A DNA stretch of 64,000 nucleotides from Octopus vulgaris (Eukaryota): assembly GCA_951406725.2 (NCBI GenBank), contig OX597832.1, positions 1,054,001 to 1,118,000 on the forward strand, written 5' to 3'. The first letter of the stretch is position 1. Each line of letters starts with the position of its first letter. Shown here piece after piece: positions 700 to 21,600 of this stretch. Below the pieces are notes generated by a model. That model was not told the origin of the DNA. It made no database searches and saw only the letters and a program-made list of their open reading frames with translations. The translations under genes and the position numbers were made by a program.

Positions 700-3600
700 T
701 TTTTATGGTTACAAATTCTCTGGGGAATTTTTCTGATACACACTTGTTTGATTTTGAAGTACATTGACTTGTAGATGTGAAGATTACATTTACCAAAGAT
801 TTCACTGATATCTCAAGCTTTCTCAGAAAATGTGAAGTTATAAAATGTTGAAGATGAGCATGAAGTTGCTTGGAAATTTAAAAATGAAAAATTCTTGTTT
901 TTTGATTAACTATATACTTCATGATCTTGAGATATACAATTACGTGTATATTAACCCATGACTTCTAAATCAAACAAGTGTGTGTCAGAGAAATGAAAGT
1001 CACACATGAGTATATAGTAAATTGGAAAACAAAAATTTTTCCTTAAAAAATTTTCAAGCAACTTCATGCTCATTTTCAACAACTTCAGGTTTTGTGAGGA
1101 AACTTCAAGGTTCAGTGAAATGTTTGGTATATCGTTCAGAGATATCAGTAATTTATTTTAACCAATTACTTGTGCATCCGATATATGTTTATGAGGAAAA
1201 TGAAATGTCACAAATGAGTAAATAGTAATTGCAAAATCAAGAATTTTCTTTTCAAATTTTCCACAGAATTTCATGCTGATTTGCAACTTCGTTTTCTTAG
1301 AAATTTTGAGATTTCATTGAAATGTGTGGTAAATATAATTTTCTCATCTAGAACTGAATTTATATTAATGCATGACTTCTAAATTAAACAAGTGTGAAAT
1401 GAAAGTCACAAATGAGTATATAGTAAATCGGATAATAAGAATTTTTCATTTCAAAATCTCCAATTTATGCTGGTTTTCAAGATTTTGCAACATCATGTTT
1501 TCTGAGAAGACTTGAGATTTCAGTGAAATGTTTGGTAAAAACATTCTTCACCTCTAACAGTTATAGTATATTATCCCTTTACTTCTGAACCAAATAAATG
1601 TTTTGTCAAAGAAATAGAAAGTCCTGAATGAGTAGAAAGTATACAGGCAAAGAATAATGTTTCAACTTGATGCTTATTTGCAATATTTTGTGACTTCACG
1701 TTTTCTGACATCTGTCAGTTGAACGAGTGATTGTGAGAAAAATTAAGTCACAAATGAGTAAGTAGTAAATGCGAAAAGAAGAATTTTTCATTCCAAAATT
1801 TCCAAACAACCTTATGATGATTTGCAATAGTTTTCTGAGGAAACTTCAGTGTTCAGTGAAATGTTTGGTAAATATATTATTCAGAGCTATCAGTTAATGT
1901 ATTTTAATCAATTACTTCTCACTCCGAGATATGTTTATGAGGAAAATGAAATGTCATGAATGAATAAATAGTAAATGCCTAAACAACTATTTTCATTTTA
2001 AAATTTCCAAACAATTCCATGCTGATTTGCAACATTTTGCAACTGCATGTTTTCTAAGAAAGTTTGCGATTTCAGTGAAATGTTTGGTAGATATAATCTT
2101 CACAACTTCAAGTTAATATATATTAACGCATGACTTCTAAATCAAACAAGTGTGTATCAGAAAAATTAAAGTAACAGATGAGTATATAGTAAATCGGAAA
2201 AAAGAATTTTTGGTTTCAAAATTTCCAATTTCTTACTGGTTTTTATCATTTTGCAACTTCATGTTTTCTGAGAAAGCTTGAGGTGTCAGTAAAATGTTTG
2301 GTAAAATTATTCTTCACCTCCTACAGTTAATGTATATTAACCCATTAATTCTGAATCAAACAAATATATGTCAAAGAAATATAAAATTATGTATGAGTAA
2401 AATGTATACGGACAAAGAATAATGTTTGAATTCAAAATTTTCTAACAATATCATGCTGATTTCCAATATTTTGTGACTTCAGGTTTTCTGATACCTGTCA
2501 GTTGGGTACGTGATTGTGTGAAAAATTAAAAGTCACAAATAAATAGTAAATGCAAAAAGAAAAAATTTTCATTTCAAGATTTCCAAACAACTTCATGCAG
2601 ATTTGCGACATTTTGCAACTTCATGTTTTCTGAGGAAAGTTCAGAGTTCAATGAAATGTTAGGTAAATATATTATTCAGACCGTCAGGTAATGTATTTTA
2701 ACCAATTACTTCTCCATCCAACACATATGTATGAGGAAAATGAAATGTCATAAATGAGAAAAGAGTAAATGCGAAAAGAAGAATTTTCATTTCAAAATTT
2801 CAAAATAATTTCATGCTGATCCGCAACATTTTTCTAAGAAAGCCTGAGGTTTCAATGAAGTGTTTGGTAAATATAATCTTCACATCTACAAGTTAATGAC
2901 CTCTAAATCAGACAACTGAGTGTCAGAAAAATGAAAGTCACAAATAAGTATATATTAAATTGGAAGGCAAGGATTTTTCATTTCAAAATTTCCAAACAAT
3001 TTCATGCTGGTTTGCAACATTTTGCAACTTCATATTTTCTGAGAAAGCTTGAGATTTCAGTGAAATGTTTGGTAAAAACACTCTTCACCTCTAATAGTTA
3101 ATGTATATTAATCCATTACTTCTGAATCAAACAAATGTGTGTCAAAGAAATGTAAAGTCATGAATGAGTAAACAGTATATGGGCAGAGAATAATTTTTCA
3201 ATTAAAAATTTTTCAATTTCGTGTTGATTTGCAACATTTTGTGACTTTACATTTTCTGTTAATGTATATTAAACTTTTACTTCAGAATCCGAGAAGTGTG
3301 TATCAAGAAAAACAAAGTGATAAATGTGTAAGTATTAACTGCGGAAACAAGTATTTCTGATTTCAAAATTTTCAAACACTATCTTGCTGGTTTGCAATAC
3401 TTTTCAACTTTGTTTTCTGAGGAAACTTCAGAGTTCTGTGAAATGTTTGGTAAATACAATCTTTACATCTATCAGTTGATGTATATTAAACTTTTTACTT
3501 CTCAATCCGACAAGTGTGTATAAAAAAAAGTGTGTATATGACAAGTGTTTGTCAGAAACATTAAGTCATAAATGTATAAATTGTAAATGCAAAAACAAGA

Positions 3601-4096
3601 ATTTTTAATTTCAAAATTTTCGAATGATTTGATGCTAATTTCAATCATTTTGTGACTTCATGTTTTCTGAGAAAACTTGAGAATTCAGTGAAATGTTTGG
3701 AAAATATAATATCACATCTATCAGTTAATATATATTAAACCTGTACTTTTCAATAGATGTGGAAATAGTAAGTGCAAAAACAAGAAATTTTTATTTCAAA
3801 ACATTCAAATAATTTCATGCTGATTTCCAACATTTTGTGACTTCATTTTTCTGAGAAAGCTAGAGATTTCATTGAAATGTTTGGTAAATACAATCTTCAT
3901 CTCCAACAGTTCATGTATATTAAACCATTACTTCTGAATGAAACAAGTGTGTGTCAAAGAATTATAAAGTCTTGAATGAGTAAACAGTATATGGGAAAAA
4001 AATAATTTTTCGTTTCAAAATCTTCAAAAAGTTTCATACTGATTTCCAACATTTTGTGATTACCTGTTTTCTGAAAAAATCTTGAAGTTTAGTGGT
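700..4096. repeat. AT-rich satellite, ~205-220-bp monomer, ~740-795-bp four-monomer higher-order repeat
   Basis: The anchor GAAATGTTTGGTAAA recurs at ~1117, 1319, 1525, 1858, 2077, 2291, 2653, 2857, 3062, 3440, 3690 and 3874. The variant monomer with ATGAGGAAAATGAAATGTCA recurs at ~1117, 1858 and 2653. The left boundary is approximate. Confidence 0.9.
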
Positions 4097-4170
4097 TGTT
4101 GTGTGGACGCCCCCAGACGATAAGTAGGCTAGTCCAATACGTATAGTGTACGTGATAGCTAGTCGTAGAA
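4097..4170 (+). mobile_element. Left part of a split Mag/Gypsy-type 5' LTR
   Basis: The satellite stops abruptly and TGTTGT starts at 4097. It pairs with an LTR end ATGACA (11726) and a PBS-like TGACGACGAGG (11728-11738). Confidence 0.55.
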
Positions 4171-4182
4171 GCATTGCGCAGA

Positions 4183-5716
4183 TTTTTTTAGTTGAGTTGT
4201 TGATAACGGAGTGTGTTTATCGTGAGAGCGTTAAATATTTGTTGATATTGTAAATTGTTGGTTTTTTTCCCCATTGGTGGAACAATGGAGAAAACGCTGG
4301 CGAGCGGCCACAACTGGAAATGGAATGGAGGAGGAAGCATTGGAAATGATTGAAGTTGGGGTGGAACCAGGAAAGGTGAAGGAATGTGAGAGGTTGCTGG
4401 TGGGAGAGGGAGATATGTAGAAGTTGGCGCCGCCTGCAGAACTGACAAGCAATGTAACAAAGTGAACAGTTGTATTTAACTCGATGAAAGGAGCAGCGAG
4501 AAGGATGGAGATTGCGACAGTGAAAGAGGTTGAGGAGTGTTTGAGAAGCATGAGGGGACTGACGACATTTGTAGCAGGAAGAGAGAGGTACGCCGCCGTT
4601 GAGATACGCTTTGTGACTGAGGAAGATGCAACGGAGGCATTAGGATCGTAGGAGTTGGTGCTTCTGCCTTCGTATTGTGGCAAACGTGCGGCCGGAGTGC
4701 GAGTAGGCAAAGTGCCCCCCAGAACTGAATGAAACATGGCTGTTGACAGCCATAATGTTCAACATGAGGGATGGGGCCAAGATGTTGAGGGCCACAGGGA
4801 CACATGGAATCAGCTGCTGGGGATGCAGGATCGAGCTCACTATCCGGGCAGCAATAGAAGACTTAAATTGGATTGCTGAGGAGATGGTGCTGCCAGACGA
4901 CTTGAGATTGAGGGTGGTGGTGGGGAGCAGGCCGCCGGTATGTTTTGCATGTAGGGAGAGGGGCCACATGAGGGCGGGGTGTCCACATGGAGAGCAGATG
5001 GAAAGGCGTGATAGTGCGGACCGGATGGTGCAGGTGGAGTTGGAGGAAGGAACAGCAGAGGAGAGATTCATGGTGGTGGAGGGAAAGGAAGGTAGAGGTA
5101 GGAGAGTGAGCCCGCCGCCGGGTGGCCAGAAAGAGAGGATGGAAGAGGTGGAAATGAAGGCTGCGACCAGAAGGAGGGAATACAAAAGGGTGGTGGCGAA
5201 GGGGAGTGAGGAGGTGATCGAAAAGGTATTGGAGAGGGAGTTGCAGAGGGAGGAAGCAGTGTTGAAGGCGCCGGTTGTTCCAGTGAAGGAGGGGGTTCAG
5301 GAGTGCAACTGTACGAGGGTGGAGTGGAGATGAAAAAGGAAAAGGTACCAGAAATGGAAGTAGAGAAGAGAGGAGCAAGAAAAGGGAAAAATAAATGGTA
5401 TTTCGTAACATATGCAAAAAACAAAGAGACAGAAAGAAAAATTGTAAAATTTAAGCATGTAATAAGAGTGAGGTTGTCCACGGATATGTATTCCGAAAAT
5501 ATGAAGGCCATTGTGGTCGACAAAGACACATACAAGAGACAGAGAAACATGCGCGGAGATAAGATTGACCCGCCCGGAGTGTTGGTGGAGTTTGACGAGC
5601 TGCCACCCGTAATTGAACCCAGACACTTGGAGCCTTTCATGAGGTATTAAAAAGGAAAAAAAAAAAAACAAGAGTAAGTAAAATTATTTTGTTGAAAGAA
5701 AAAAGAGAACAGAAAA
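4183..5716 (+). mobile_element. ORF1-only non-LTR element copy 1 (Tx1/L1-type gag-like ORF1), frameshifted, 3' tail lost
   Basis: RRM-like segment YAAVEIRF...LLPSYCGKRAAGVRVGKVPP, CCHC knuckle CFACRERGHMRAGC, E/K/R-rich linker, and C-terminal domain KWYFVTYAKNKETERK...EPFMRY ending at stop 5650. Homologous to copies 2-4. Confidence 0.8.
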
Positions 5717-6398
5717 GATCTGGTGTCGAAGAAATTCTTCATGGTAGACACCTGTTGTTGTAGCATTTGGCCTTTTCGTCTCACTGCAGACAAGCCTAAG
5801 CGTTCTTCCATTGTTTTGCACGCCATTGACTCGTCTCCTATAACTACCTTCGGTCAGATTTCTCTGCGCCTCGTTATTAATCTTCGTTGAGATTTTCAAT
5901 GGGTTTTCGTCGTCGCTGACATACTGCATCCTATTCTCGGTGCTGATTTCTTGGATCATTTTAATATATTGGTAGATGTTAGGCGTCGGAGGTTTCTCGA
6001 CAGTACCACGTCGCTCTCCACGCCGACCAGAGGTTCTACCAATGCGGTTCTTAGCCCGACATATGTTGTTGCCACCTCTGGAGACGCCTTTCATTCTCTT
6101 TTGGCTTCATTTACTGAGCTAGTGAACATTACTTTTCAGCTGGCAAAGCCTGCCCACTCGACCCTTCATTTTATTACCACCACTGGGCTGCCTGTTTTTT
6201 CGCGCCCACGGTGCCTTGCGCATGACCGTCTAAAAATGGCTAGGGCCGAGTTTGAGCACATGCTCCAACATGGCCTGATACACCCCTCCACCTGCCCATG
6301 GGCGTCTCCCCTTCACTTGGCGCGAAATTGGGAGTCTGATTTGCGATCGGTAGGAGATTATCGTCGCCACAATGCAGTAACAATACCAGATTGCTACA
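5717..6398 (+). mobile_element. Ty3/Gypsy pol fragment (protease to RT N-terminus, CsRn1-like)
   Basis: FFMVDT...FQWVFVVADILHPILGADFLDHFNILVDVRRRR...PVFSRPRCLAHDRLKMARAEFEHML...PWASPLHL...VGDYRRHNAVTIPDCY. Confidence 0.85.
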
Positions 6399-6695
6399 CC
6401 CCATATGAATTCTTCAGGGTTAGGGTATCTTTTTTTCTTCGCAAATGTAAATAAACCCAATCTGTTTCTTAAACGAGGGACATATTCATACAGCACGGAA
6501 TGTTGTTTACGTCAATGGAGGTCAGCGATTGGTTAAAATTGCCGAAATGCTCGAAATTAAAGTCGAAATATGTTACAACATATAGAATTTTCTCAATAAA
6601 GCCAAGAAAAAATGATGTTTTATAAACACATTCTACCAGTATACGAAGTTTAAAAGTGTTTAGTTAACTAGAAATTGTGTTGAAAACTGCCGTTC

Positions 6696-8714
6696 AAAAG
6701 GAAATGTGGAAGAAAAAACAACGGAGGAAGGATTCACGGTGGTGGAAAGAAAAAGAAAGAGAAGTGGAAGAGTGAGCCCGCCGCCAGGCAACCAGAAAAA
6801 GAAGAAAGAAGAGGTGGAAATGAAAGCTGCGACCAGAAGGAAGTGTAGTATGAATGGTGAAAGGAGTACAACAGAACAAGGAAAGGAATGGAAATGTAAT
6901 TGGGTCTTACCTGGCCGGAGATGAACTCGGATCGCCTTTAGCCAACTCGCTCGCGTCCTGTCTTCTTGGTGTCTTCGTCGTGTCTGCGCAACTGGTCAAT
7001 GCCGCACGTGCGTTCTGTCTGTCACTTCCGCTTCCGCCGGCGCATGCGCCCTGCAAGACCTGCAAGACCCACTTCCGCCCCCCCCCCCATTCCGTCACAC
7101 TCCTTCACCATCACACCACACGCCCCCCTGATCTATAGATCACTGAACCGGCTTCCTCACTCGCTCCCGCACCTAAAACTGGTTTCATAATCAGCTAACC
7201 AGGGAGGAGGGTGCCGCTCCCTCTGTGGTCGCAGTGCGACCCTAGGACTTGTTTCTGGTGTGTTGCTGCCGACCTCGTCATCCTGTCTGTTGTTTTCGTC
7301 TTGCCCACTGTTGCTTGTCCCATCCTCTGGGGCATGGACAATCCTCCGTAAGTCGGATCTCCACTTTATCTGCGCTGAGTTGGTCCGTCTCCTCCATCTC
7401 TAGATATAACGCCAACGCCGGGCCATCCAAATACAACGGCATAAAACTAGCCAGGTCAGCTATACCGTGTAGCTTCGCCACCAACTTTACCCTCTTCAAC
7501 CAAGCGACCACATCGGTGTCGCCGCAAAACGGTGTTATAGGCTCGCGTGAAACCATAGCACTCTGCATAATTTTCTATTTTTATTTTTACGAAACCGAGT
7601 GATTATTTGCCGAAATAGCTTGTAGTATGAATGGTGAAAGGAGTACAACAGAACAAGGAAAGGAATGGAAATGTAATTGGGTCTTACCTGGCCGGAGATG
7701 AACTCGGATCGCCTTTAACCAACTCGCTCGCGTCCTGTCTTCTTGGTCTCTTCGTCGTGTCTGCGCAACTGGTCAATGCCGCACGTGCGTTCTGTCTGTC
7801 ACTTCCGCTTCCGCCGGCGCATGCGCCCTGCAAGACCTGCAAGTCCCACTTCCGCTCCCCCCCACCATTCCGTCACACTCCTTCACCATCACACCACAGG
7901 AAGGAAGATAAAAGGGTGGTGGAGAAAGAAAGAGAAAAAGTAATCATAAAAGTGTTGGAGAAGGAGTTATAGAAGAAGGAAACAGTGTTGAAGACGCCGG
8001 TTATTCCAGCGAAGGAAAAAGATTCAGGAGTGCAACTGTACGAGGGTGAAATGAAGAAATTGTTCTGAGTGGAGATGGAAAAGGAAAAGGTACCAGAAGT
8101 GAAAGTAGAAAAGAGAAGAACAAGAAAAGAAAATAAATGGTATTTCGTAACATATGCAAAAAACAAAGAGACAGAAAGAAAAATTGTAAAATTTAAACTT
8201 ATCATAAGAGTGAGGTTACACACGGTTATATATTCCGAAAATGTGAAGGCCATTGTGGTCGACAAAGACACATACAAGAGACTGAGAAACATGTGCGGAG
8301 ACAAGCTTGACCTGCTCGGAACGTTGGTGGAGTTCGACGAACTGCCACCCTTAGTTGAACTAAGAGACTTGGAGCCTTTCATGAGGTATTAAAAAGGAAA
8401 AAAAGAGTAAGTAAAATTATTTTGTTGAAAGGAAACAAAAAAGGAAAAAGTAAAAATGATTCATGTAAAACAAAGAAGAGACAAAAAGATGATTAAGAAA
8501 AAACAATAGAAAAATAGAACGATTGTAAATAGTGAGTATAAACGTTCAAATGGTACTGCATGGGAGTGGGGCCCATGCAGCCATTTCATTTCTTCATTTT
8601 TATATAATATCTCATTCTCATTCGTTTTATGTTTGATGCCCCCATTGTGGTGTTGTGTCTGTCCTTGTAGTGTCCTCCTCTCTGTTGTGGCCGTAGTGCC
8701 AAATAAAGAAATAA
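6696..8714 (+). mobile_element. ORF1-only element copy 2 (5'-truncated, interrupted by an LTR element at 6844-7898)
   Basis: Collinear with copy 1 (RVSPPPG, EEVEMKAATRR, KWYFVTYAKNKETERK...EPFMRY, stop 8392). Followed by a 3' UTR, a hairpin at 8548-8586 and an AATAAAGAAA tail. Confidence 0.8.
6844..7898 (-). mobile_element. Miniature (TRIM-like) Gypsy LTR retrotransposon with 5-bp TSD GGAAG
   Basis: Direct LTRs at 6844-7120 and 7621-7898 (TG...CA, about 5-6 differences). TSD GGAAG at 6839-6843 and 7899-7903. Minus-strand polypurine tract at 7121-7134. The 500-bp interior has a gag start (ITPFCGDTDVVAWLKRVKLVAKLHGIADLASFMPLYL) and an integrase tail (RERHPPPWLADYE). Confidence 0.92.
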
Positions 8715-10296
8715 GCGTCGCGTAGAGAATTTTTGGTGGTTTGTTGTGTTTTGATTTCGCTCACATGTGAGCTGTTGCTTTGTTTGGTTGAATTGCTGAA
8801 TTGTTGAAATTGTGATTGTTGAATTTGTAATTTTTTGAATTCATTGAAAATTTTGTGACTTCCCCATTTATGCGTGAAGCAGTGAATAACGGAAATATGC
8901 TGGTTCAAACGGGCTGTTATGCGGCAGTGACGGGCAAAAGCCTGACAGCTGAGCTACTGCAGATACGCGAATTAGAAGTGAAGGATATGGACTGTAAGAA
9001 GTTTAATACCTTGTTGGAGAAGGAAGGAGGATGCCTACAGCTGACAACCCCCAAGGAAAGGACAGAGAAGACAGAGAGAAAAATCATTACTTATAGAACA
9101 TTGAATATAGCGACAAGGAAGGTGGAAGTAGCAGGCGTTGAAGAGATAGAGGAATGCTTAAAAGATGTGACAACTTTCTACAACAGAGGAAGAAAATTTG
9201 GCACGGTGGAGGTACGCTTCGTTAATGAAAACGAAGCAAAGAAGTACTCTACCATAGCCTTGAAATCAGCACAGTGGGCACTCTTGCCTACTTATTGTGG
9301 CAGACGCGCAGCCAGTGTGGGGATAGGGAGAGTGCCACCCGAAATTAACAAAGACTGGCTTGTGGCAGCCATCCTCTACAATACAGAGGAGAAAGTAGAG
9401 ATATTGAAAATATCAAAGACAGTGGAGGTCAACTGGTGGGGATATGGCCTAGAGGTGATGGTACTTATCAGCCTGCCTGATCTCCACAAAATGATAGAAG
9501 AGATAGTCCTGCCCGATGAGACCAGACTGAGAGTCATGGTGGAGGGTGACCACCAATATGCTTCCAATGTGGTGCAAGGGGACACATAAAAGCAAAGTGT
9601 CCCCGGAAACATGCACAAGAGGTGGTGGAGAAGGATCGTCAGGAAGAAGTAAAAGTAATAGCAGAGGAGGAAGTAGAGCTCACTGAAGTAGAGATGAGAG
9701 GAAATAGTGAATCTCCACCGAAAAAGAAAAGAAAAACAGAGAAAAAGGAAAAAAAGAAAAATGAAGCAACGGGAGAACAAATACAAGCGCCGGAGCCTTC
9801 AACAAGTAAGGAGGAGGAGGTTTAGAGAAGGCCACGTAAAAGAAAACACGAAAGAATGATGGTGATGTACGAGAAAAGTATAGAAATAGAAAAGCGAATT
9901 GCAAAAACGAAAGGTGTAATAAGAGTGAAACTGGCAGATAAGGAGGCGGATTGAAAGAAGAAGCAGTGTTGTTTGATGACGAAAAAGCAGCTAGAAGGAG
10001 ATATTTGGAAGTAGGATGGATAATGCACCATACGGGTTCAATACAATGAATTACCACCAGTGGTAAATTTTGAAGATCTAATGGGGGGGGGTTCTGATAT
10101 AAAAACGATACAAACTGAATTGTAAAAACAGTAAAATGGAACTTTCTATTTTGGGGGGTAGAAAGCCATTTCATTATCATAATTCTTCACACCTCATAAC
10201 TCATTCGTTAATCGTTATATATACCCATGTTTGTGTTGTCTGTCCATGTAATGTCCTTTCTATAAATAAGGCTTTATGCCTATAATAAAGAAAAAA
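8715..10296 (+). mobile_element. ORF1-only element copy 3 (apparently full length, ~1.58 kb)
   Basis: ORF 8855-9589 (CYAAVTGKSL...RGRKFGTVEVRF...LLPTYCGRRAA). It frameshifts into a CCHC knuckle (CFQCGARGHIKAKC) and then a decayed C-terminal domain (EIEKRIAKTKGVIRVKL...VQYNELPPVV). Hairpin at 10134-10171 and AATAAAGAAAAAA tail. Confidence 0.82.
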
Positions 10297-11601
10297 GCGT
10301 CGCATAGAGAATTTTTGAGTTGTTGATTTAGTCTGGCGATAACGTTGTTGTTGAGAGCGGTGAGTTATTGGACCTTAAATTTTTGAAACTGTTATATTGT
10401 TGGAATTTTGTTAATTATTGTTGAATTTGTTTCTTTCTTCCCCATTTTTGGGTGAAGATATGGAAGCTGGCAGTTACGCTGCGGTGACAGGCAAAAGCCT
10501 GTCAGCCGACATGCAGCAACTGAAAGAAGTGAAGTTAAAAGACAAAAATTTTTTAAAGTTTAATGGACTGTTTGAAAAGGAAGGGGATTTCCTCCGGTTG
10601 GCGTCACCTGTCGAATTTTTGCAAGAAGCCGAGAAGAAAATTATTGTGTATCGCATATTGAACATTGAAACAAAACATGTGGAAGTAACAGAAATTGAAG
10701 CCATAGAGGGGTGTATACGGGAAGTCAAAGAAGTGATCACTTTCTATGCCAGAGGAAAGAAATACGGCACAGTGGAGGTGCGTTTCATGAACGAAGAAGC
10801 AAAAAAGTACTCCACTGTGACTTTGAGAACGGCCAATTTACTGCGGAAAACGAGCCGCAAGAGTGAGGATAGGGAGAGTGCCCCCGGAAATAGACGAGAC
10901 ATGGCTAGTGGCAGCCATCTTCTATAACTGTGAAAATGAAGCAGAAGTAATTAAGGTGGAGAAGTCTAATGAGATAAATTGTTGAGGTTATGGACTAGAA
11001 GTGATAGTCTATATAGCCCTACCAGACTTGCATAAAATAGTAGAGGAGCAGGTGCTCCCCGATGAGACCCAACTGAGAATATGTTATAATGATAGAAGTA
11101 GGGGACACATGCAGGCGAAGTGTCCCCATAAACAGGAGGAATGTTATAATGATAGAAGTAGGGGACACATGCAGGCGAAGTGTCCCCATAAACAGGAGGA
11201 ATTGGAGAAAAACCGGGCAGAGATGGTAACGGCAGTGGTGGAGGAAGAAAAGAAAGTAGAAGAAAGTGGTAAACAAGAAAAGGACAAGTGCAGAGTCACT
11301 GCCAAAAAGCCCGAAAAAAAAAGGCGGCAAAAGCACAAGAGAAAGAGGAAGAGAATGTAATTCGAACCCTGGAACCGGAGCCGACAACAGGTAGGAGTCA
11401 AGAAGAGAGATATGAGAGGTGGAGGAAGAGGATAAGCGAAAAAATAGCGCAAATGAGGCAGTCAAGGCAGCCGAGAGGATAGATTATATTATTCATTTTT
11501 CATATTTGCATACGTCTTTTTATGTACCCCATGTTTTGTGTTGTCTGTCCTTGTGATGTCCCTTCTATTTTGAGGCTTTATTCCTATAATAAAGAGAAAA
11601 G
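10297..11601 (+). mobile_element. ORF1-only element copy 4 (~1.3 kb, C-terminal domain deleted)
   Basis: SYAAVTGKSL...RGKKYGTVEVRF; degenerate knuckle CYNDRSRGHMQAKC duplicated (11081-11200); same 3' tail TGTCTGTCCTTGT...AATAAAG. Confidence 0.8.
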
Positions 11602-11791
11602 GCGTCACGTAGAGCAAACTGAAGCCGTCGGTCGACTAGATGTCGAGTCGTCGGAAGTGAGAGTTCGGTAGTTGAGTAGAAGTACATTATTGGCGAAGGC
11701 ACGCCATCCGAATGTGCGATATGACAGTGACGACGAGGTTTCGAATAGTACCGAAATGGAAGAGTTATTGAAAGCAGTTGTCAACAGCAGT
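11602..11791 (+). mobile_element. Right part of the split Mag/Gypsy LTR, PBS and gag start
   Basis: LTR end ...ATGACA at 11726, then TGACGACGAGG (one mismatch to the Mag-type PBS TGGCGACGAGG), then ATG at 11756 reading MEELLKAVVN. Confidence 0.6.
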
Positions 11792-12024: not shown

Positions 12025-12356
12025 TTTATCCATCTGTCGTTGAAAGAAAACGCGGTGCCGGTGTTCAAACCGAAAAGGAATGTACCTTTTGCGGCGTTAA
12101 ATCAAGTTGAGAAGGAATTAAAAAGATTGGAAAACATGGAGGTAATTGCAAAAGCAGATTACTCTGAGTGGGCGGCTCCTACTGTATATATAAAAAGAAC
12201 AACAAAATAAGAGTATGTGCGGACTTCTCAACTGATCTTAATGATTGTTTAAAAAATTACAATTATCCGCTTCCAAACCCAGAAGAAATATTTGCTAAGT
12301 GCAATGGTGGGAAAATTTTTTCCAAGCTGGATTTGTCAGAGGCCTACCTCCAAATT
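12025..12356 (+). mobile_element. Gypsy (Mag / K02A2.6-like) RT N-terminal fragment
   Basis: LKENAVPVFKPKRNVPFAAL...SEWAAPTVYIK, a frameshift, then KIRVCADFSTDLN...YPLPNPEEIFAK...FSKLDLSEAYLQI. Confidence 0.85.
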
Positions 12357-12894
12357 TGCTGGTTCCCCAGAACTTCGTAGAAGTTGTGTGGGTTTTTTAC
12401 TACCCAGTTCTTCGTTGTTAAATAATTTTGCGAATTCTTTTTGCTTAGAACTTGACGTACGCTTCAATATTTCTTCTTTAATGGATGAATACGAAACTGG
12501 TTCCATAGGGTTCAGCAGCAAACCCCTGATTTCATTGCTTAGAGGTGGAGGCAAATTACTAAGCATGATGTTGTACTTCTGTTCTTCATTTGTTATTCTG
12601 TTAGCTTTGAAGCTTGCCTCTAGTTGTGCCAACCAAATTACAGTGTCTCCAGTCCACGGAGGACAATTCAATACATTGACAGAAGCTTGTGTGTAACTTC
12701 TGTCGAAGTATGATGTCTCGAATTCTTTTTTTTCCTGCTCCATTATATTTGTGAATATATATATTTTTTTGTTTTTTCGTTTTTCTTAAAAGGTTTCTTC
12801 TTCAGCGTTCTCTTGTGTCAATAATTCCGTAACTTATTACTGTCTGCGTAGTATATACGAATGGCTGCGTATTTGAAAACGTTCGGGTCACCAG
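12357..12894 (-). mobile_element. Gypsy (CsRn1-like) gag N-terminus with tRNA-Trp-like PBS
   Basis: ORF starting at 12743: PPWTGDTVIWLAQLEASF...LGSKKPTQLLR. PBS TGGTGACCCGAACG (minus strand, 12893-12880) lies 1 nt after an LTR end ...CTTACA. Confidence 0.8.
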
Positions 12895-13821
12895 TGTAAG
12901 AAATACGAACGCACGTGGTCGCATTGGGTAGGGAATACGATCGCACGTGGTCATATTCTTAACGAATTATTACAAGCCATAAATACATGCAGTAACAACA
13001 GAACATAAGTGAATTGACGACAGCGTGGCAGTTTCAGCCATTTTGAAATATGACTATAGCGATTTCTAATATCTTCACTATTTGAAAGGCAAGACAGAAA
13101 TTATCTCGTTTGAGGTTACAGCCATCTTTGGCCAACTTGTTCCTGTTGTAAACACTAACCTGATTGGTTGACACGTGACGCGATTTGTCTCCACTTATTT
13201 TCGCACCACTGTCCCGAAACAACCAATCACGGCCTTTGGTTAAGATTCCATTTCTGAAGCTCGTTTGAGCCACCCAACCGGTATATAAAGGAGTGTTTTC
13301 AGACACTTTTTGTCTTTGGTTCCAGTCCTTGTAAGGACTAACTTCAGACCACAGAGCTACTCAACCCGGCGACAGACGATTGCTCCTGCTACAACTAGCG
13401 ACGATGCTAATGTACACTCACCACAGAAAGCCTACTACCTTCGCCGTCGCCACCATCATGTACCAACTTCGAGTCGCCTCTAACATCTTCGCCATACAAA
13501 CTGTAAACCAATTTCCATTATTAATTCTATGCTTTGTACCTTTCTATGCCACATGCATTCACCCTGATTGTATCTGTCACACACACGAACACACAGACAC
13601 AAAAACGTGTTGCATACGCACATACGTGCTAACACTTACAAACTTCTAACATCAGCACGATTGTAAATAAAATGATATTTATCTCTCAACCGAAGGCTTG
13701 TCGTCAATTCACTAATGTTCTTTTGGTATTGCATTGTATTTATGGCTTATAATAATTCGTTAAGACCACGTGCGATCGTATTCCCTACACAATGCGACCA
13801 CGTGCGTTCATATTTCTTACA
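12895..13821. mobile_element. LTR region with ~125-bp inverted ends (TGTAAG...CTTACA)
   Basis: 12895-13022 is the reverse complement of 13699-13821 with a few mismatches and indels. On the + strand there are a CCAAT (~13223), a TATA-like TATATAAAG (~13282) and an AATAAA (~13666). Confidence 0.75.
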
Positions 13822-15085
13822 GTCACAAATGAGTATATAGTAAATCGGAAAATAAGAATTTTTTATTTCAAAATTTCCAAAACATTTTGTGCTGTTTTGC
13901 AACATTTTTCAATTTCGTTTTCTGAGAAAGCTTGAGATTACCGTTAAATGTTTGGTAAAAACACTCTTCACCTCTAATAGTTAATGTATATTAACCCATT
14001 ACTTCTAAATCAAACAAATGTGTGTCAAAGAAATGTAAAGTCCTGAATGAGTAAACGGTATATGAGCAGAGAATATTTCAATTCAAAATTTTCAAACAAT
14101 TTCATGCTGATTTGCAACATTTTGTGACTTCATGTTTTCTGTTAATGTATATTAAACCTTAACTTCTGAATCCGAGAAGTGTGTATCATAAAGAATAATG
14201 TGATAAATGCTTGCAACATTTTGCAACTTCGTTTTCAGAGTTCCGTGAAATATAATCTTCACATCAGTTCTCGATCCCACAAGTGCTTCTTAAAAAAAGT
14301 GTGTATGTATGATGAGTGTTTGTCAGAAAAATTAAAATTCATGTGTAAGTAGTAAATGTGGAAACAAGAATTTTTTATTTCAGTATTTTTGAAACAATTT
14401 CATGCTAATTTCAAACATTTTGTGACTTTATATTTTCTGAGAAAGCTTGAGATTTCATTGAAATGTTTGGTAAATCTTCATCTCCAACAGTTAATGTATG
14501 TTAACCCATTACCTCTGAATGAAACGAGTGTGTGTCAAAGAAATATAACGTCACGAATGAGTAAATAGTGTATGGGAAAAGAATAAATTTTCATTTCAAA
14601 ATCTTCAAACAATTTCATTCTGATTTCCAACATTTTGTGACTTCATATTTTCTGAAAAAGCTTGAATTTCAGTGAGTATATAGTAAATCGGAAAGGAAAC
14701 ATTTTTCGTTTCAAAATTTCCAAACAATTTCATGCTTGTTTGCAACATTTTGCAACTTCATGTTTTCCGAGAAAGCTTGAGACGTTAGGTAAATATAATC
14801 TTCACAAAAAGCAGTTAATGTTTATTCACTCAATACTTTTCAATCGAAAACTGAGTGTCAGAAAAATGAAAGGCAGAAGAATTTTTCATTTCAAATTCTA
14901 TCAAAGAATTTCATTCTGCTTTCCAATCTTGTGATTTCATATTTTCTGAAGAGGCTTGAAATTCAGTGACATGTTTGGAAAATATATTCTTCACCTCTAT
15001 CTGTCAATGTACTTTAAACATTTACTTCTGAATCTGCGAAGTTTGTATCATAAAAAATATTGTAATGTAATTGTTTTCGCACTTA
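13822..15085. repeat. Same ~215-bp satellite, resumed after the retroelement nest
   Basis: GTCACAAATGAGTATATAGTAAATCGG and AAATGTTTGGTAAA monomers. Confidence 0.9.
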
Positions 15086-15287
15086 TGAGGGTTAGTGTTA
15101 GGGTTGGGTTAGTGGTAGGGGTATAGTGAGGGGTAGGGCTAGGGCTAGGTTTAGAGTTAGGGTTAGGAGCAGGGTTAGATTTATATATTTGTTTTCGCAT
15201 TTTAAAGTGTTAGGCTACTGATAGGGTTAGGTTTAGGGTTATGGTTAGGGCTAGAGTTAGGTTTAGGGTTAGTGTTAAGTTTAGGTT

Positions 15288-15447
15288 AACAACAATAACA
15301 ACAACATCAAAAAATACCTTAGGAATGAGAACCCAGGTTCGAAATTTCCCCAAGACACCTGATGAAGGCTGGAGGGTATATCAGCCGAAACGTTGTGTTA
15401 ACTATCAAGACGAGGACAAATCAATTGTAAATAATGTAAATAATGTA
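15288..15447 (+). mobile_element. Penelope-like element terminal (pLTR) fragment
   Basis: Non-satellite, non-telomeric insert carrying a minimal hammerhead motif, which is a hallmark of Penelope-like pLTRs. Confidence 0.55.
15354..15399 (+). ncRNA. Minimal type I hammerhead ribozyme motif
   Basis: GACAC-CTGATGA-A-GGCTG-(GAGGGTATAT)-CAGCC-GAAA-CG-TT-GTGTT. Stem I is GACAC/GTGTT, the CUGAUGA and GAAA core is intact, stem II is GGCTG/CAGCC, and stem III is the palindrome AACGTT. Confidence 0.75.
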
Positions 15448-18061
15448 TTTCAGTGAAATGTTTGGTAAATATAACCTTCACATCTGTCTGTTAATGTATA
15501 TTAAACCTTTATTTCTGAAACCGACAAGTGTATATCATAAAAAATAAAGTCATAAGAGAATAATATATTTGTTTTCACATTTAAGAGAAAGTCGCGTGAG
15601 CATTTCGTAACCCGAAGAGCAGGAAGGGTGAGGGTTAGGGATTAGTGTAAGGGATAAGATTAGGGTTAATGTACAGTTTCGGGTTAGGTTTAGGGTTAGG
15701 GTTAGTGTCAGGGTTAGCGTTATATTCAGGGTTAGTGTCAGTATTAGGGTTAGGGTTAGCGTTTAAGGTTTAAGGTGAGGGTTAGGTTAGGTTTAGGTTT
15801 AGGGTAAGGGTTAGGGTTTGGGCTAGGGTTTAGAGTTGAGTTCGAGTTACGGTTAAGTTTAGGGTTAGGGTTAAAGTTAGTATTATGGTTAGGGTTAGTG
15901 TGAGGGTTAGAGATAGTTTTATGTTTTAGGGTTTAGTGTTAAATTTAGGGTTAGGGTTAGAGTGAGGGTTATGTGAGGAATAGTGTTAGAGTTAGGGTTA
16001 TGGTTGGGGTTGGTATTATGGTTAAGGTTAGGTTTAGGGTGTGATCTAGGGTTAAGGCTAGGTTTAGAGTTAGGGTTAGTGTTAGTGTTACGGTTAGCAT
16101 TAGCATAATGGTTTAGGGTGTACGGTTGGGTTAGGGTTTGGGATAGGGTGATGGTAAGAGTTAGTGTTAGGCTTAGGGTTAGGGTTCGGGTTAATGTTAT
16201 GGTTAAGGTTAGAATTAGGGCGAGGGTTAGGTTTAAGTTTAGGGTTATGGATAGGTTTAGTGTTGGTGTTAGGATTAGGGTTAAGGAGAGGGTCAGAGCT
16301 AGGGTTAGGGTTATGGTTAGAATTAGGGTTAGGGTTAAGATTAGGGTTAGGGTTAAGGTTAGCATTAGTGTTAGGGTTATGGTTTGGGGTAGTGTACGGA
16401 TTAGGTTTATTGTTAGATTTAGGATTAGGGTTAGGTTTCGGTTTTTGGTTAGGGTTAGGATTAGCGTAATAGTTTAGGGTGAATGCTTGTGCAAGGGTTT
16501 GGGATAGGGTTAGGTTTAGATTTAGTTTTAGGGTTACTGTTAGTGTTAAGTTTACGGTTAGGGTTAGGTTTAGTTTTAGTATGAAGGTTAAGGGTTAGTG
16601 TTACGGTTAGGTATAAGCTTAGATTTAGGGTGAGGGTTAAGGTTATTGTTAGGGTTAGGGTTACGTTCTGTGTTATGTTTAGGGTTAGGTTTAAGGTCAG
16701 CGTTAGTATTAGGGTTAGGTTTAGGGTTAGGGATAGGGTTGGGGTTAGTGTTAGGGTTAGTGTAAGTGTTGGGGTTAGGGTTAGGGTAAGGGTTATGGTT
16801 AGTGTTAGGGTTAGAGTTAGTGTTAGGTTTAAGGTCAAGGTTAGGTTTAAGGTTACGGTTAGTGTTAGGGTGAGGTTTAGGGTTAGGGATATGTTTAGGG
16901 TGAAGGACGGGTTATGGTTAGGTTTAGGTTTAGTGTTAGGGTTGGGGATAGGTTAGGTTTAGGGCCAGGCTTAGGGTTAGGGTTTGGGGTAGTGTTAGAG
17001 TTAGGGTTAGGATTATTGTTACGTTGATGGTTAGAGTTAGGGTTAGTTTTAAGGTTAGGGTTAGTGTTAATGTTAGTTTTAGGGTTAGAGTTAATGATAA
17101 GTTTAAGGTTAAATGGAAGGTAATGGTAATGGTTAGGTTTAGTGTTAGGGTTCTATGGTTAGGTTTAGTGTTAGGGTTCTATCTAGGGTTAGGGCTAGGA
17201 TTAGGGTTAGATTTAGGTTTAGTTTTAGGGTTAGCATTAGGTTTAGGGTTAGGGTTTGAGTTAGCTTTAAGGTTAGGTTTAGATTTAGTGTTAGGGTTAA
17301 GGTTAAGGTTATGGTTAGGCGTAGGTCTAGTGTTAGGTTCAGGGTTAGGTTTAGTGTTAGTCTCAGTGTTTAGGTTTAATGTGACGGTTAGGTTTAAGCT
17401 TAGGATTAGGGTGAAGGTTAGGGATAGGTTTGGTATAAGTGTTAGGGTTAATGTAAGTTTTAGTGTAACCCTAAAACTTTAGGGTTAGGGTTAGGTTTAG
17501 GCTTAGGGTAAGGATTAGGGTCAGAGTTAGGGTTAGGGTAAAAGTTAGGACTAGTGTTAGGGTTAGGGTTATGTTTATTGTTAGGTTTGGGTTAAGTTTA
17601 GGGTTAGGGTAGAGTTAGTGTAAGAGTAAGGGTTAGGGTTAGGTTTAGTTTTAGGGTTTCGGTTAGGGTTAGGAGTAGGTGTAGGGTGAAGTTTAAGGTT
17701 ATGTTTAGTGTTAGTGTTTGGGTTAGGGTTAATGTAAGGGTGAGGTTTAGGGTTAGGGTTAGGGATATGGTTATGTTTAGTGTTAGTGTTTGGGTTAGGG
17801 TTAATGTTAGGGTTTGTGTTAAGGTTAGGTTTAGGGTTAGGGTTATGGTTAGGATTAGGGTTTGGATTAAGGTTACATTTAGGGTTAGGGTTAGGGCTAG
17901 GTTGAGTGCAAGGTTTAGGGTTAGGGTTTGGATGAGTTTGAGGGTTAGGTTTAGGCTCTAGGGTTGGGGATAGTGTTAGGGTTAGTGTTAGGGTTAGGGT
18001 TTGGTTTAGGGTTAGGTTTAGGCTTGGGTTCGATTTAGGTTTAGGTTGAGGGTTAGGGTTA

Positions 18062-18603
18062 TTAAATGTAAAAACAAATATTTCTCATTTGAAAATTTTC
18101 AAATGATTAGTTAATGTATATTAGCCAATTACCTGTCAATCGGAGAGTGATTGTCAGAGAAATTAAAAGTCATAAATGTGTAAATATAAATGCAAAATCA
18201 AGAATTTTTCATTTCAAAATTTCCAAACAATTTCATGCTAATTTCCAACATTTTGCAACTTCATGTTTTCTGAGGAAACTTTAGAGTTCAGTGAAATATT
18301 TGGTAAATACAATCTTCATCTCTAACAGTTAATGTATATTAACCCATTACTTCTGACTGAAACAAGTGTATGTCAAAGAAATATAACGTCACAAATGAGT
18401 AAACAGTATATGGGAAAAGAATAATTTTTCATTTCAAAATCATCAAACAATTTCATTCTGTTTTCCAAGATTTTGTGACTTCAGTGAGATGTTTGGTAAA
18501 TATATTCTTCGTGTATGTTAAACCTTTACTTCTGAATCCGCCAAGTGTGTATCATAAAAAAACAATATCATAAATGTGTAATATATTTGTTTTCTCATTT
18601 AAG
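18062..18603. repeat. Satellite island inside the telomere-like array
   Basis: About 2.5 monomers of the same ~215-bp satellite. Confidence 0.9.
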
Positions 18604-21600
18604 AGGGTTATGGTTAAGTTTAGTGTTAGGGATGGGGTTAGGGTTAAGGTTTGGGTTGGGTTAGGGTTACATTTAGGCTTAGTGTTAGCGTTAGGGTTAG
18701 GGTGAGGGTTAGGGTTAGGGTAATGGTTAGGTTTCGGGGTAGGCTTATAGTTAGGGTTAGGGTTCAGGTAAGGGTTAGGTTTAGGGCTAGCGTTAAGTTT
18801 AGGGTTTGGATTTAGGGCTAGTGTAAGTGTCAGGTTTATTGTTAGAGTTAGGGTTACAGTTAGGGTTAGGTTTAGGTTTAGGGTTAGGATTAGGGTAAGT
18901 GTTAGGTTTAAGGTGAGGGTTAGGGACAGAGTTAGGGTTAGTGTTAGTGTGAGGGTTACGGTCAGGGTAATGGTTAAGGTTAGATTTAGTGTTAGTGTTA
19001 GGGTTAGGGTCTGCTTTAGGTTTAGGTTTAGGGTTTGGGTTAGGGTTTGGTTTAGTGTTAGGGTTAGTATTAGGGTTAGTGTTAGGGTTAAGGTTAGGAT
19101 TAGGGTTAGGTTTAGGGCTAGCATAAAGTGTAGGGTTAGGTTTAGGGTTAGTGTGTTAGGTTTAGGGTTAGTGTTATGGTTAGGGTTAGAATTAGGGTTG
19201 GGCGTAGGGTTAGGTTTAGGGTTAGGTTTGGAGTTAGGTTTAGGGTTTGGTTTCGGGTTAGGTTAAGGGCTAGAGTTCAGGATAGGGTTAGGGTTATGGT
19301 TTCAGTTAGGGTTAGGATTAGGGTAAGACTTATGGTTAGTATTAGTGTTAGCGTAGGTTTAGGGCTAAGATTAGGTTTAGGTTTAGGGCTAGTATTAGGG
19401 TTAGGGCTAGGTTTAGGGTTAGGCTTAGAGTCAGGGTTAGGTTGAAGATTAAGGTTACTGTTAGGCTTAGGTTTAGGATTAGTGCAAACTTTAGGTTTAG
19501 GGTACGGTTAGGATTAGGGTTAGTGTTTGGGTTAGGTTTAGGATTAGAGTTAAATTTAGGGTTAGTTTTGTGGTTAGGGTGAGGGTTAAGTTTAGGGTTA
19601 GAGTTCAGTTTAGGCTTAGGGATAGGGTTAGGATTAAGGTTAGGGTAAGGCTGAGTGTTAGGGTTATGGTTAGGGTTAGTGTTAGGATTAGTTTAGGTTT
19701 AGGTTTATTAGTTAGGTTTATGGTTAAGGTTAGAGTTAGGTTTAGGGTTAGGGATAGGAATATGGTTTGGTTTAGGGTTAGGGTTAGGTTGAAGTTTAAG
19801 GTTAGTGTTAGGTTTAGGATTAGTGCAAACTTTGTTTAGGGTTAAGTTTAGGATTAGGGATAGTGTTAGGGTTAGGTTTAGGTTTCGAGTTAGGGTTAGA
19901 CTTATTTTTAGGTTGAAGGTGAGGTTTAGGGTCAGGATTTTGGTTAAAGTTATGGTCATGTTTTAGGGTTAGGGTTTGTGTTGCATTTAGCGTTAGGATT
20001 AGTTTTAGAGTTGGGGTTATGGTTATGATTAGGATTAGAGTTAAATTTAGGGTTAGTTTTGTGGTTAGCATTAGGTTTAGTGCTAGGGCTAGACATAGGG
20101 TTAGTGTTTGATTTAGCGTTAAGTTTAGGGTTAGATTTAGGGTTAAGGTTAGTGTTAGTACTAAGGTTAGGGTTAGAGTTAGGATTTGGGTTAGGGTTAA
20201 GTTTAGGTTTAGCATCAGGATTAGTGTTAGGGTCATGGTTACTTTAAGTGTTACGGCTAGGGTTAGTGTTAGGGTTAGGGTTAGGTTTAGTGTTAGTATT
20301 AGGATAAGGGTTATCGTTTGGGTAAGGGTTACATTTAGGGTTAGGCATAGGGCTAGTGTTAGGGTTAGGTTTAGGTTTATGCTTAGTGTTAGTGTTAGGT
20401 ATAGGATTAGTGCAAGCGATAAGATTAGGGTTAGGTTTAGGCTTAATGCTAGGGTTAGTTTTAGGGTGAGGGTTAGCGTTGGGGTTAGGGTTAGATTTAG
20501 GGTTAGAAATAGGGTTAATATTAGGGTTGGCGTTAACATTAGGGTTAGGTTTATGGTTAAGTTGAGAGTGAGGTTTAAGGTAAGTTTTCGGGCAAGTGCG
20601 AGAGTTAGGTTTTAGGGTTAGCTTTAGTGTTAGGTTTAGTGTTAGGTTTGGGGTTAGCATTAGGTTTTTGGTTAGGTCTAGTGTTAGGATTAGGTTGAGG
20701 GTTAGGAATAGATAGTGGGGTAGGTTTACGGTTAGGTTTAGGGTTAATGTTAGGGTTAGTGTGAGGTGTAGATTTAGGTCTAGGTTTAGGTTAAGTTTAT
20801 GATTAGGGTTGGGTTTCGTGTGATTGTTAGAGTTAGGGTTAGGGTTGGGGTTAGGACTAGTGTTAGGGTGAGGGATATGGTTTATGGTAGGGTTAGGTTT
20901 AAGGTTAGGTTTAGGTATAGTGTTAGGGTTAAGGTTAGGGTTAACGTAAGGGTTGGTTTCGGGTAAGGTTTAAGGTTAAGGTGAGGTTTAATGTTAAGGT
21001 TTGAGTTCATGGTAGGGTTAGCATTAGTGTTAGGTTTCTTCGTAGGTTTAGCGTTAGAGTTAGGTTTAGGTTAGGTTTAGTGTTTGGTTTGGATTTGGGT
21101 TAGTTTTAGAGTTAGGTTAAGTGTTAGGATTAGGGTTAGGTTTAGGGTAGTTTTAAGGTTACTATTACCGTTAGGCTTAGGTTTAAGTTTAGGGTTAGGG
21201 CTAGGGCTTGTGTTAGGTTATGTTCAGGGTTAGGTTTAAGTTTAGTGTGAGTGTTAGGGTTAGGGTTAGTGTGAGGACAAGGGTTAGGGTTAGTTTTAAT
21301 GGTTAGCGTTAGGTTTAGTGTTAGAGTAAGACAGGGTTCGTGTTTGAGTTAGGGCAACGGTTAGGGTTAGTGCTAATGTTAGGGTTAGAGTTAGGGTTTG
21401 GGTTAGGGTTTGGTTTAGGAGTTAGGGCAACGGTTAGGGTTAGTGCTAATGTTAGGGTTAGTTTTAGGGTTAGGTTTAGGTTTATGGTTAGTGTTAGTGT
21501 TAGGGATAGGATTAGTGTAAGCGATGGGATTAGGGTTAGGGTTAATGTTAGCTTTACTGTTAGGGTGAGGGTTAGCATTGGGGTTTTAGTTAGGGTTACA

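Follow-up and report, generated by a model that had tools for sequence, protein, structure and literature searches.

Tandem ORF1-only LINE derivatives in an octopus Ty3/Gypsy LTR and the likely borrowing of transcription start sites

How Tx1-type LINEs choose their targets is generally explained by an endonuclease that recognises particular sequences. Drosophila HeT-A forms tandem arrays and uses the promoter of its upstream neighbour, and Bao and Jurka 2010 is reportedly the reference for HAL1 (half-L1). Transposon-targeting LINEs of the Tx1 clade include Xenopus Tx1, found in Tx1D, and crocodilian Tx1-Mar, found in Mariner-N4_AMi (PMC4494074). Targeting of LTR elements by Tx1 is already published: according to the same source, Tx1-8_Crp and Tx1-4_AMi target LTR retrotransposons, SINEU elements are likely non-autonomous passengers of crocodilian Tx1, and the criterion for a target preference was >20% of flanks (PMC4494074). 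HAL1 is described as a non-autonomous element of the mammalian L1 lineage that encodes only ORF1p (PMC5753468), and HeT-A as encoding no RT (PMC5537684). In Dictyostelium, the APE-type non-LTR element TRE5-A inserts 44-54 bp upstream of Pol III genes in the opposite orientation, and its ORF1p interacts with TBP, Brf1, and Bdp1 (PMC5911963).

The locus described here lies in a 64,000-nucleotide stretch of Octopus vulgaris DNA (the window; contig OX597832.1), where four stripped-down elements are stacked head to tail at a single precise position of a Ty3/Gypsy LTR. They are non-autonomous derivatives of L1/Tx1-type LINEs, with an RRM and zinc-knuckle ORF1 and no ORF2, and are likely to belong to elements that look for transcription start sites and make use of them, not to parasites of one LTR element.

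The array and its inserts

All LTR parts, target duplications, and copies lie on the plus strand, as do the host sequences downstream of the LTR. The left part of the 5' LTR (4097-4170) aligns to positions 1-78 of uninterrupted LTR copies; its CCAAT lies at 4134, and a 4-nt deletion has damaged the TATA box at 4142. The decayed target motif noticed ahead of copy 1 in the preliminary description was found at 4171-4182; the final bases of this left duplication are perhaps the element's own, and the C of GCGCAGA at 4179 probably belongs to its 5' start because L368, L414, and L366 likewise start CAGATTTTT. Copy 1 (4183-5702), which has lost its 3' end, consists of a GT-rich 5' UTR and a broken ORF1 with a zinc knuckle (a weak Pfam zf-CCHC match, E 0.014), and is 76-78% identical to a complete single insert in L074. 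Its junction with copy 2 is gone, the interval 5703-6706 being occupied by nested sequence with a pol-like fragment (assigned by eye, no Pfam match) and a very high-copy repeat at ~6422-6704. Copy 2 (6707-8714) is of the copy-1 type (81-83% identical), 5'-incomplete with an intact 3' UTR and tail, and split by a small nested LTR element (6844-7898) that has two 278-bp LTRs of 98% identity, a 5-bp TSD, and a short gag-like frame on the minus strand.

The target duplication ahead of copy 3 (8713-8735) holds the motif at 8715-8727, and its 23 nt recur with one mismatch at 10295-10317, a span that takes in the first 8 nt of copy 4. Copy 3 (8736-10294) is a full-length ORF1-only element with 5' UTR, frameshifted ORF1 with zf-CCHC, 3' UTR, and AATAAAG tail. 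The motif at 10297-10309 marks its junction with copy 4 (10310-11601), which has lost an internal segment, contains a tandem duplication of 60 bp (11081-11202), and is 65% identical to copy 3; identity between adjacent copies of the array is just 63-83%. The right target duplication (11602-11614), equal to LTR positions 79-91, is followed by the right part of the LTR (11615-11726), by a PBS-like sequence and host gag start (11728-11783) that also follow the 5' LTRs of more complete family members, and by a reverse transcriptase fragment of the host family (12039-12300) that is 85-92% identical to its other members. The 13-bp motif claimed for every intact junction is indeed present at 8715, 10297, and 11602 with 0, 1, and 1 mismatches, preceded each time by an A-rich tail, as had been stated, and this tail contains AATAAAG; ~0.04 matches of this quality are expected by chance in 64 kb. 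The output of the repeat finder over the whole window was dominated by simple repeats. No RNA datasets containing the stretch were listed. Contigs from 4 DNA runs cover the left junction, and none of the joints listed among them deletes exactly one unit or the entire array.

No ORF2 match was found within 4097-11738. ORF1-only units measure 1.5-2 kb (5' UTR, ORF1, 3' UTR), some with an open ORF1 of 430-483 aa between TSDs. As expected of HAL1-like elements, they lack ORF2 while their ORF1 is homologous to that of autonomous LINEs of the same genome (30-41% identity to ORF1 of intact LINEs, with an RRM-like region and a CCHC knuckle common to both). The elements show an A-rich tail after a polyadenylation signal, TSDs of variable length, and 5'-truncated copies, the hallmarks of target-primed reverse transcription. 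The intact LINEs encode an APE-RT-zf ORF2 of 1132-1149 aa (Exo_endo_phos, RVT_1, and zf-RVT in Pfam), with an endonuclease closest to L1-type structures, and their 3' tails are similar to those of the ORF1-only elements. Membership of these autonomous relatives in the Tx1 clade is likely; no named Tx1 reference appeared among the 120 homologues listed or in 10 clusters inspected. The predicted fold of an intact relative's ORF1 shows RRM-like domains (mean pLDDT 56), Pfam detected only the zinc knuckle in the ORF1 pieces, and a protein search with the copy 3 ORF1 returned nothing among longer proteins, which is weak evidence.

Empty and occupied LTRs

The host element is assigned to Ty3/Gypsy by domain order, its family frames giving protease, RT, RNase H, and integrase in that order, together with TG...CA LTRs and a 5-bp TSD; the Mag lineage is reported as common in molluscs (PMC6238403). 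The segments 4097-4170 and 11615-11726 proved to be two halves of one LTR family, as had been supposed from joining the array's flanks. Natural LTRs are ~218 bp long, and the copy in the window measures 199 bp owing to two small deletions, one of them through its TATA box. The suggestion that its termini are CpG-decayed TGTCGT...ACGACA is ruled out by the ends of natural LTRs, which are TGTTGT (32/35) and ATAACA (30/35).

Empty sites, on which the earlier model depended, exist as 48 distinct uninterrupted LTR copies in the genome; 13 of the 35 full-length ones are flanked by the 5-bp duplications typical of solo LTRs. Exactly one motif (<=3 mismatches) occurs in 30 of the 35 full-length uninterrupted LTRs and none in the other 5. 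It occupies positions 79-91, ~30 nt behind the TATA box (TATAAA at LTR position 46 in intact copies). A further 16 LTR copies, or 17 counting L287, are broken at the motif site by ORF1-only elements of several subfamilies, all inserted in the sense orientation of the LTR, and 15 occupants compared at their 3' ends show 43-90% identity to one another. The occupied fraction in LTR-driven samples is about one in eight (4/29 and 3/29). L294 and L370 have an insert in the 5' LTR and an empty partner LTR, and the two LTRs of L071/L072 carry different elements. Another subfamily (L077, L281, L287) inserts at a second site, 19 nt downstream. The LTR family is small, with 13 exact matches of an internal 19-mer and ~65 copies by overlap of samples, an estimate that is biased low.

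Since empty LTRs carry the motif once, occupied LTRs carry it on both sides of the insert, and several subfamilies interrupt the same site, the motif is a regenerated TSD and the array the product of independent insertions; divergent copies thus pile up at one site, in line with the preliminary description. It is highly improbable that the motif is element sequence or that the array grew by tandem duplication or passive amplification of one insertion together with its LTR. The shared type of copies 1 and 2, and two copies at unrelated targets that hold the motif in their 5' end, would fit such an origin. Against it stand the motif in empty LTRs, the 63-83% identity of neighbours, and the paired LTRs that differ in occupancy; empty sites and divergent occupants refute both tandem duplication and the motif as ordinary element sequence.

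The two exceptional copies (L383/L056 and L288/L427) start with LTR positions 76-90 or 79-91. A motif confined to the element's own 5' end, named beforehand as grounds for rejecting a target, is thus true of L383 and L427 but not general, as most 5'-complete relatives are without it. The most plausible explanation for these two is 5' transduction from source copies resident in LTRs, since the motif is present in the empty LTR and the 3' junctions there run on into its right half. Their possession of the LTR motif also suggests that LTR-resident copies are likely transcribed from a start site at the target, at a position inferred rather than mapped.

Targets elsewhere in the genome

Homing of the elements to a single site in a single LTR retrotransposon, as the preliminary description had it, was not supported, the same subfamilies being found mostly at other targets. 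Among close ORF1-only relatives, the motif site was present in 11 of 87 non-self 3' junctions (3/29, 5/29, and 3/29 in three sets) and the other 76 lay elsewhere. By 5' junction, the motif LTR accounts for 5/7 5'-complete copies of the copy 4 type and 5/20 of the copy 3 type, 3 of the latter 5 being one duplicated event. An LTR-specific family like Tx1-8_Crp would have >20% of its copies in one group of LTR elements. The remaining targets are other LTR families, a DNA-transposon-like repeat, unique DNA, and hammerhead repeats, a label given from a motif scan and pair counts. Rfam searches of other targets in 8 loci gave no hammerhead, all 104 matches falling below family cut-offs; these involved models of microRNAs or snoRNAs and lay for the most part on simple repeats. 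The 3' junctions of four other targets were sought and not recovered.

Elements dedicated to one site of one LTR retrotransposon would account for the occupancy of about one in eight sampled LTR copies and for the bias of the copy 4 type. Such dedication is nevertheless very doubtful given the 76 junctions elsewhere and the recurrence of the subfamilies at hammerhead repeats, other LTR families, and the DNA-transposon-like repeat; the data largely refute it for elements of types 1/2 and 3, and it could survive for the copy 4 subfamily only. A one-site LTR hyperparasite is too narrow a model.

What many targets appear to share is not the motif sequence but a position ~30 nt behind a TATA-like box. 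The TSD begins 26-34 nt behind such a box, picked by eye, in 16 of 19 manually selected sites from about a dozen unrelated targets, the other three being at 15, 20, and 42 nt. At 14 of 31 first-in-array junctions a strict TATAWA is found 43-66 nt ahead of the element 5' start, vs 1-5 per equal background window, in a small sample where the TATA window was set after viewing the data, several junctions come from one target family, and 3 junctions (L383, L392, L421) are miscalls or microsatellite. In a short sister LTR, a 12-mer 27-30 nt behind the TATA carries an insert in 5 of the 6 copies seen, and every sister-LTR copy was located via the inserts; in the main LTR family the same 12-mer lies 117 nt behind the TATA and was not seen used. 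We found no account of TATA+30 homing in the literature searched.

Proposed mechanism and comparison with known systems

We consider it probable, with considerable room for doubt, that the array represents four independent ORF1-only insertions ~30 nt behind the LTR TATA, likely made by the trans-acting ORF2 of a full-length Tx1-type LINE that likely chooses start sites by position and not by LTR sequence alone. The starting point is the empty LTR, whose single motif at positions 79-91 is found on both sides of the insert in occupied copies. A helper ORF2 would recognise the common 3' tail, nick the LTR at position 77-79, and reverse-transcribe there; a nearly fixed 3' junction and a variable second cut would give duplications of roughly 10-23 nt. 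The LTR promoter would then transcribe LTR-resident copies from a start that is the target itself, and the promoter-side duplication, retaining TATA and start site, could be hit again, pushing older copies downstream. The position may be read through a protein that tethers to the initiation complex or through local opening of the DNA. Insertion of copy 3 after copy 4 fits because the 23-nt duplication of copy 3 extends over the initial 8 nt of copy 4; against this, the duplication could be inherited, as copy 3 has its leader in common with L383, its closest relative. Copy 1 should be the newest, yet its relatives are more distant than those of copies 3 and 4 (best 5' UTR match 77%, vs 93-94%).

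Pattern searches and ORF2 tblastn revealed no autonomous element at the motif site among the loci fetched. One pattern-search match (L063) is not a tail junction, and 3-4 of 6 matches of another pattern search look like chance. The family behind the L098 chimera, considered as the motif-site helper, proved to be SINE-targeting. The autonomous families that were examined have the look of sequence-specific elements: in one of them 26 of 30 copies lie at a single SINE site, others occupy repeats of the (TC)n, (ATT)n, or (ATCT)n kind, and with such SINE and microsatellite targets these relatives exceed the >20% preference criterion. This specificity and the missing helper count against a position-reading helper, as do the second fixed site 19 nt on with its other subfamily and the 5/7 bias of the copy 4 type to the motif LTR, which position alone does not explain.

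Specific families, second site, and bias speak instead for several strictly sequence-specific Tx1-type helpers, one of them cutting the LTR motif, with ORF1-only elements riding any helper that accepts their tail and start-site clustering reflecting survival of promoter-driven lineages; crocodilian Tx1-8_Crp and Tx1-4_AMi likewise prefer particular LTR retrotransposons (PMC4494074). We regard this as a possible but less probable account. It needs one helper per target for a dozen unrelated targets, some seen once, and a dedicated helper for a small LTR family, no such helper appeared among the loci fetched, and in the sister LTR the insertion site moves along with the TATA box.

Within the positional reading, a speculative and rather unlikely extension is that the elements seek Pol II start sites and that the ORF1 protein is the targeting module, holding a borrowed ORF2 at the TBP-bound initiation complex and so giving landing at TATA+30 of any strong TATA promoter, promoter capture, and a site rebuilt for the next copy. 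If true, it would explain ORF1 retention in thousands of RT-less elements and would describe a natural promoter-trap retrotransposon. More generally, the same non-autonomous subfamilies enter unrelated sequences at an apparently constant TATA distance, and the site moves when LTR architecture changes, the first bases of the host transcript apparently being carried off. The insertions would mark start sites of old LTR promoters, and where the start site of a 5' LTR holds an insert, the host element is probably severed from its promoter. Two questions become testable, namely target switching by site-specific LINEs and ORF1 retention in RT-less elements.

Compared with known systems, the octopus inserts resemble crocodilian and Xenopus Tx1 as non-LTR insertions that prefer other mobile elements, LTR elements included, and crocodilian Tx1 also in that non-autonomous partners use the same target and that transcription from the flanking target has been suggested. 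Unlike crocodilian SINEU with its snRNA head, the octopus passengers retain a complete ORF1 and stack in tandem, and unlike crocodilian Tx1, they use many unrelated targets whose apparent common feature is TATA distance; the text of PMC4494074 gives no start-site placement for the crocodilian LTR targets, which its supplementary figures could. They share with HAL1 the state of a LINE derivative encoding ORF1p alone, HAL1 being described in PMC5753468 without the site specificity or tandem stacking of the octopus array. Like HeT-A, they are RT-less, form head-to-tail arrays, and rely on a partner's enzyme, but HeT-A is added at chromosome ends and the octopus array consists of internal insertions with TSDs. 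As in TRE5-A and yeast Ty3, the insertion position appears to be set relative to a promoter (PMC5911963); those two target Pol III genes, whereas the octopus inserts lie in sense orientation at TATA+30 of probable Pol II promoters.

The empty and occupied site in the host LTR

The left and right halves of the interrupted LTR were searched separately across the genome, and 48 distinct uninterrupted LTRs were found among all loci collected. The 35 full-length ones are mostly 217-218 bp, start with TGTTGT (32/35) and end with ATAACA (30/35), and 13 of them are flanked by 5-bp duplications. The preliminary description had read the 13-bp motif at the array junctions as a target-site duplication (TSD) and anticipated empty LTRs with a single motif; such copies exist, as the motif is present once in 30 of the 35 full-length LTRs (≤3 mismatches, mostly at LTR position 78-79) and absent in five. 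More complete family members have the pol order protease, RT, RNase H, integrase, which identifies the host element as Ty3/Gypsy. In the window, its 5′ LTR is followed by a primer-binding-site-like sequence and then by the gag start.

Beyond the window, 16 LTR copies (17 counting locus L287) are broken at the same site, a set inflated by searches driven from the element side. In two LTR-driven samples, 4/29 and 3/29 copies are occupied, with one more occupied at a second site in the latter. The cleanest case is L074, where one complete 1.85-kb element has the motif on both sides. The 3′ ends of the occupants share 43-90% identity with one another. Two LTR pairs (L294 and L370) have one LTR occupied and the partner empty, and the pair L071/L072 holds different occupants, so the insertions are independent and took place after those host copies had integrated. 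The 3′ junction is nearly constant at LTR position 77-79 (5 nt further on in L072 and L077) and the 5′ junction shifts by several bases, as expected for target-primed reverse transcription. With the motif single in empty LTRs and divergent occupants at the shared site, the motif is a TSD and the inserts at the LTR site are independent events.

Further along the LTR, 19 nt past the array site, a divergent ORF1-only subfamily (L281:1061-3213, L077, L287) uses a second site, and in L018/L019 a tail meets LTR position 178. An autonomous Tx1-type LINE is represented by its 3′ part, in antisense orientation, at the primer-binding region of this Gypsy family (L017:249-1500, also L295); both position and orientation differ from those at the array site.

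The array and its surroundings

The motif was recovered where it had been described, at 8715 (0 mismatches), 10297 (1) and 11602 (1), each match directly preceded by an AATAAAG tail, with ~0.04 matches expected by chance in the 64-kb window; a decayed copy lies at 4171. The array comprises four related units over 4183-11601; identity is 81-83% for copy 1 against copy 2 and 65% for copy 3 against copy 4. Nested sequence has overwritten the copy 1/copy 2 junction. Copy 2 is interrupted at 6844-7898 by a 1,055-bp TRIM-like two-LTR element (LTRs 98% identical, 5-bp TSD, a gag-like short frame on the minus strand), which is younger than the array. The duplication flanking copy 3 is 23 nt long and extends over the initial 8 nt of copy 4, which suggests that new copies join the array at its promoter end. 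Two observations speak against this: copy 1 appears older than copies 3 and 4, and the leader of copy 3 is also present in L383, a locus outside the array. In a single contig, from run X8, window position 9719 is joined to 11359 with 36 other letters between, suggesting an allele with a deletion between copies 3 and 4.

An AT-rich satellite with units of ~185-390 bp occurs on both sides (1000-4080 and 13821-15030), placing the entire nested cluster inside a satellite block. The window is ~1 Mb from the contig start, and ~3 kb downstream of the cluster a telomere-like (AGGGTT)n tract, long and degenerate, occupies 15088-20600. The host RT fragment is interrupted by a gag-like fragment of another LTR element (DUF7041, E 2e-17; minus strand, 12339-12785). 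An inverted repeat pair (12895-13022/13699-13821, 89% identical) encloses a ~930-bp unit, a possible non-autonomous DNA transposon. Decayed remnants of RT from other LINEs, 22-30% identical to the Tx1-type ORF2, lie at 51059-51870 and 61336-62254.

The inserts and their range of targets

The search of the 2.8-Gb genome with ORF1 gave 13,233 first-look candidates, of which 150 were scored. The relatives include 1.5-2 kb units with open frames of 430-483 aa and TSDs, and without ORF2; no ORF2 match was found inside the array. Intact LINEs with an endonuclease-RT-zinc finger ORF2 carry an ORF1 30-41% identical to that of the inserts, and have similar 3′ tails. The closest named relative of a LINE ORF2 of this genome, among the matches listed, is from Argonauta hians (63%), which points to an octopod host. 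The predicted structure of an intact ORF1 (mean pLDDT 56, confident in the N-terminal half only) resembles tandem RRM proteins. The inserts are HAL1-like (half-L1) derivatives of L1/Tx1-type LINEs, probably of the Tx1 clade. At L098:2547-2560 and L198:760-800, ORF1-only sequence runs, with no intervening tail, straight into mid-ORF2 sequence of an autonomous family, for which nested insertion, deletion and template switch are candidate readings. Another contig stretch with an ORF1-only element also holds, beyond that element, a near-perfect inverted repeat of ~245 bp (L168:6016-6261).

Homing to a single LTR site, as originally proposed, is not supported; the elements show a partial specificity for it. 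Among the best 29 non-self relatives of each 3′ UTR, 11/87 end at this site (copy 2, 3/29; copy 3, 5/29, three of which are one duplicated event; copy 4, 3/29), and the 3′ junctions of 76/87 are elsewhere. Among 5′-complete non-self matches, the 5′ junction is at the LTR site in 5/7 copy 4-type, 5/20 copy 3-type and 1/11 copy 1-type elements. The LTR family numbers around a hundred copies, and measured against that size the enrichment is enormous; most of the elements still lie elsewhere. The motif is likewise not a general flank of ORF1-only copies: other targets recur, and L383 and L427 carry it in their own 5′ end. Recurring targets include other LTR families (L394/L395/L403, L399/L422/L430, L288, and a short sister LTR), a repeat resembling a DNA transposon that was hit twice (L413, L193), and repeats in which a type I hammerhead motif follows shortly after the insertion. 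In the last, relatives insert 15-25 nt upstream of the hammerhead-like motif (L162:6338-6394, L154:7206-7263, L113:2878-2935, L152, L169) and also ~30 nt behind a TATA-like box. Nine aligned hammerhead copies have 91.5% of cells paired and two-sided change in 10/13 pairs, a strong covariation; Rfam reported none of them. The architecture fits the description of metazoan hammerheads in the part of PMC4209133 consulted.

Distance to the TATA box and comparison with known systems

In the intact LTR, TATAAA lies at position 46 and the duplication begins 31 nt further on. A strict TATAWA precedes the start of the element by 43-66 nt at 14/31 first-in-array junctions vs 1-5 per background window, the interval having been chosen after viewing the data and three of the 31 entries being miscalls or microsatellite; outside this LTR family the figures are 10/23 vs 0-4. 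The TATA-to-TSD spacing is 26-34 nt at 16 of 19 hand-picked sites. Two copies inserted at other targets start with the motif of this LTR and are flanked by a different duplication of their own. For L383/L056 both junctions were seen; L288/L427 lies in another LTR family and has lost the 3′ end of the element. The templates of both copies likely started at LTR position 76-79, which makes the target a probable transcription start site and LTR-resident copies able to act as sources.

We consider it fairly probable that a Tx1-type ORF2 would mobilise the ORF1-only elements in trans and be directed to position TATA+30, where landing would capture the promoter and regenerate the target site; helper, start site and guiding mechanism are what we infer. 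The main rival to such guidance holds that the helpers are several and sequence-specific, with selection bringing their targets together at start sites; we rate it as less likely. The short sister LTR is hit at a 12-mer 27-30 nt behind TATA. This 12-mer is 117 nt behind TATA in the main LTR family, and no insertion was seen there among the copies examined. The autonomous families examined are in (TC)n, (ATT)n or (ATCT)n repeats, targeted by intact families with an open ORF2 (L171-L186), or at one SINE site, and none was found at this LTR site. The (ATT)n-targeting family occurs in tandem arrays that repeat every ~5.9 kb, and the SINE family (L321-L350) sits at a single base of a very common SINE in 26/30 copies.

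Our literature search, with most subscription journals and Repbase outside its coverage, returned no account of ORF1-only Tx1 derivatives stacked at LTR start sites, nor of TATA+30 homing. The octopus repeat annotation lists L1-Tx1 families, with targets not described in the portion consulted (PMC13282606). Tx1 families preferring LTR retrotransposons are reported in the part of PMC4494074 consulted, which also raises the possibility that non-autonomous partners are transcribed from their own target; their place of insertion within LTR elements may be given in its supplements. As far as the excerpts go, HAL1 (PMC5753468) is a precedent for ORF1-only derivatives, and TRE5-A (PMC5911963) for LINE insertion tethered to a promoter.
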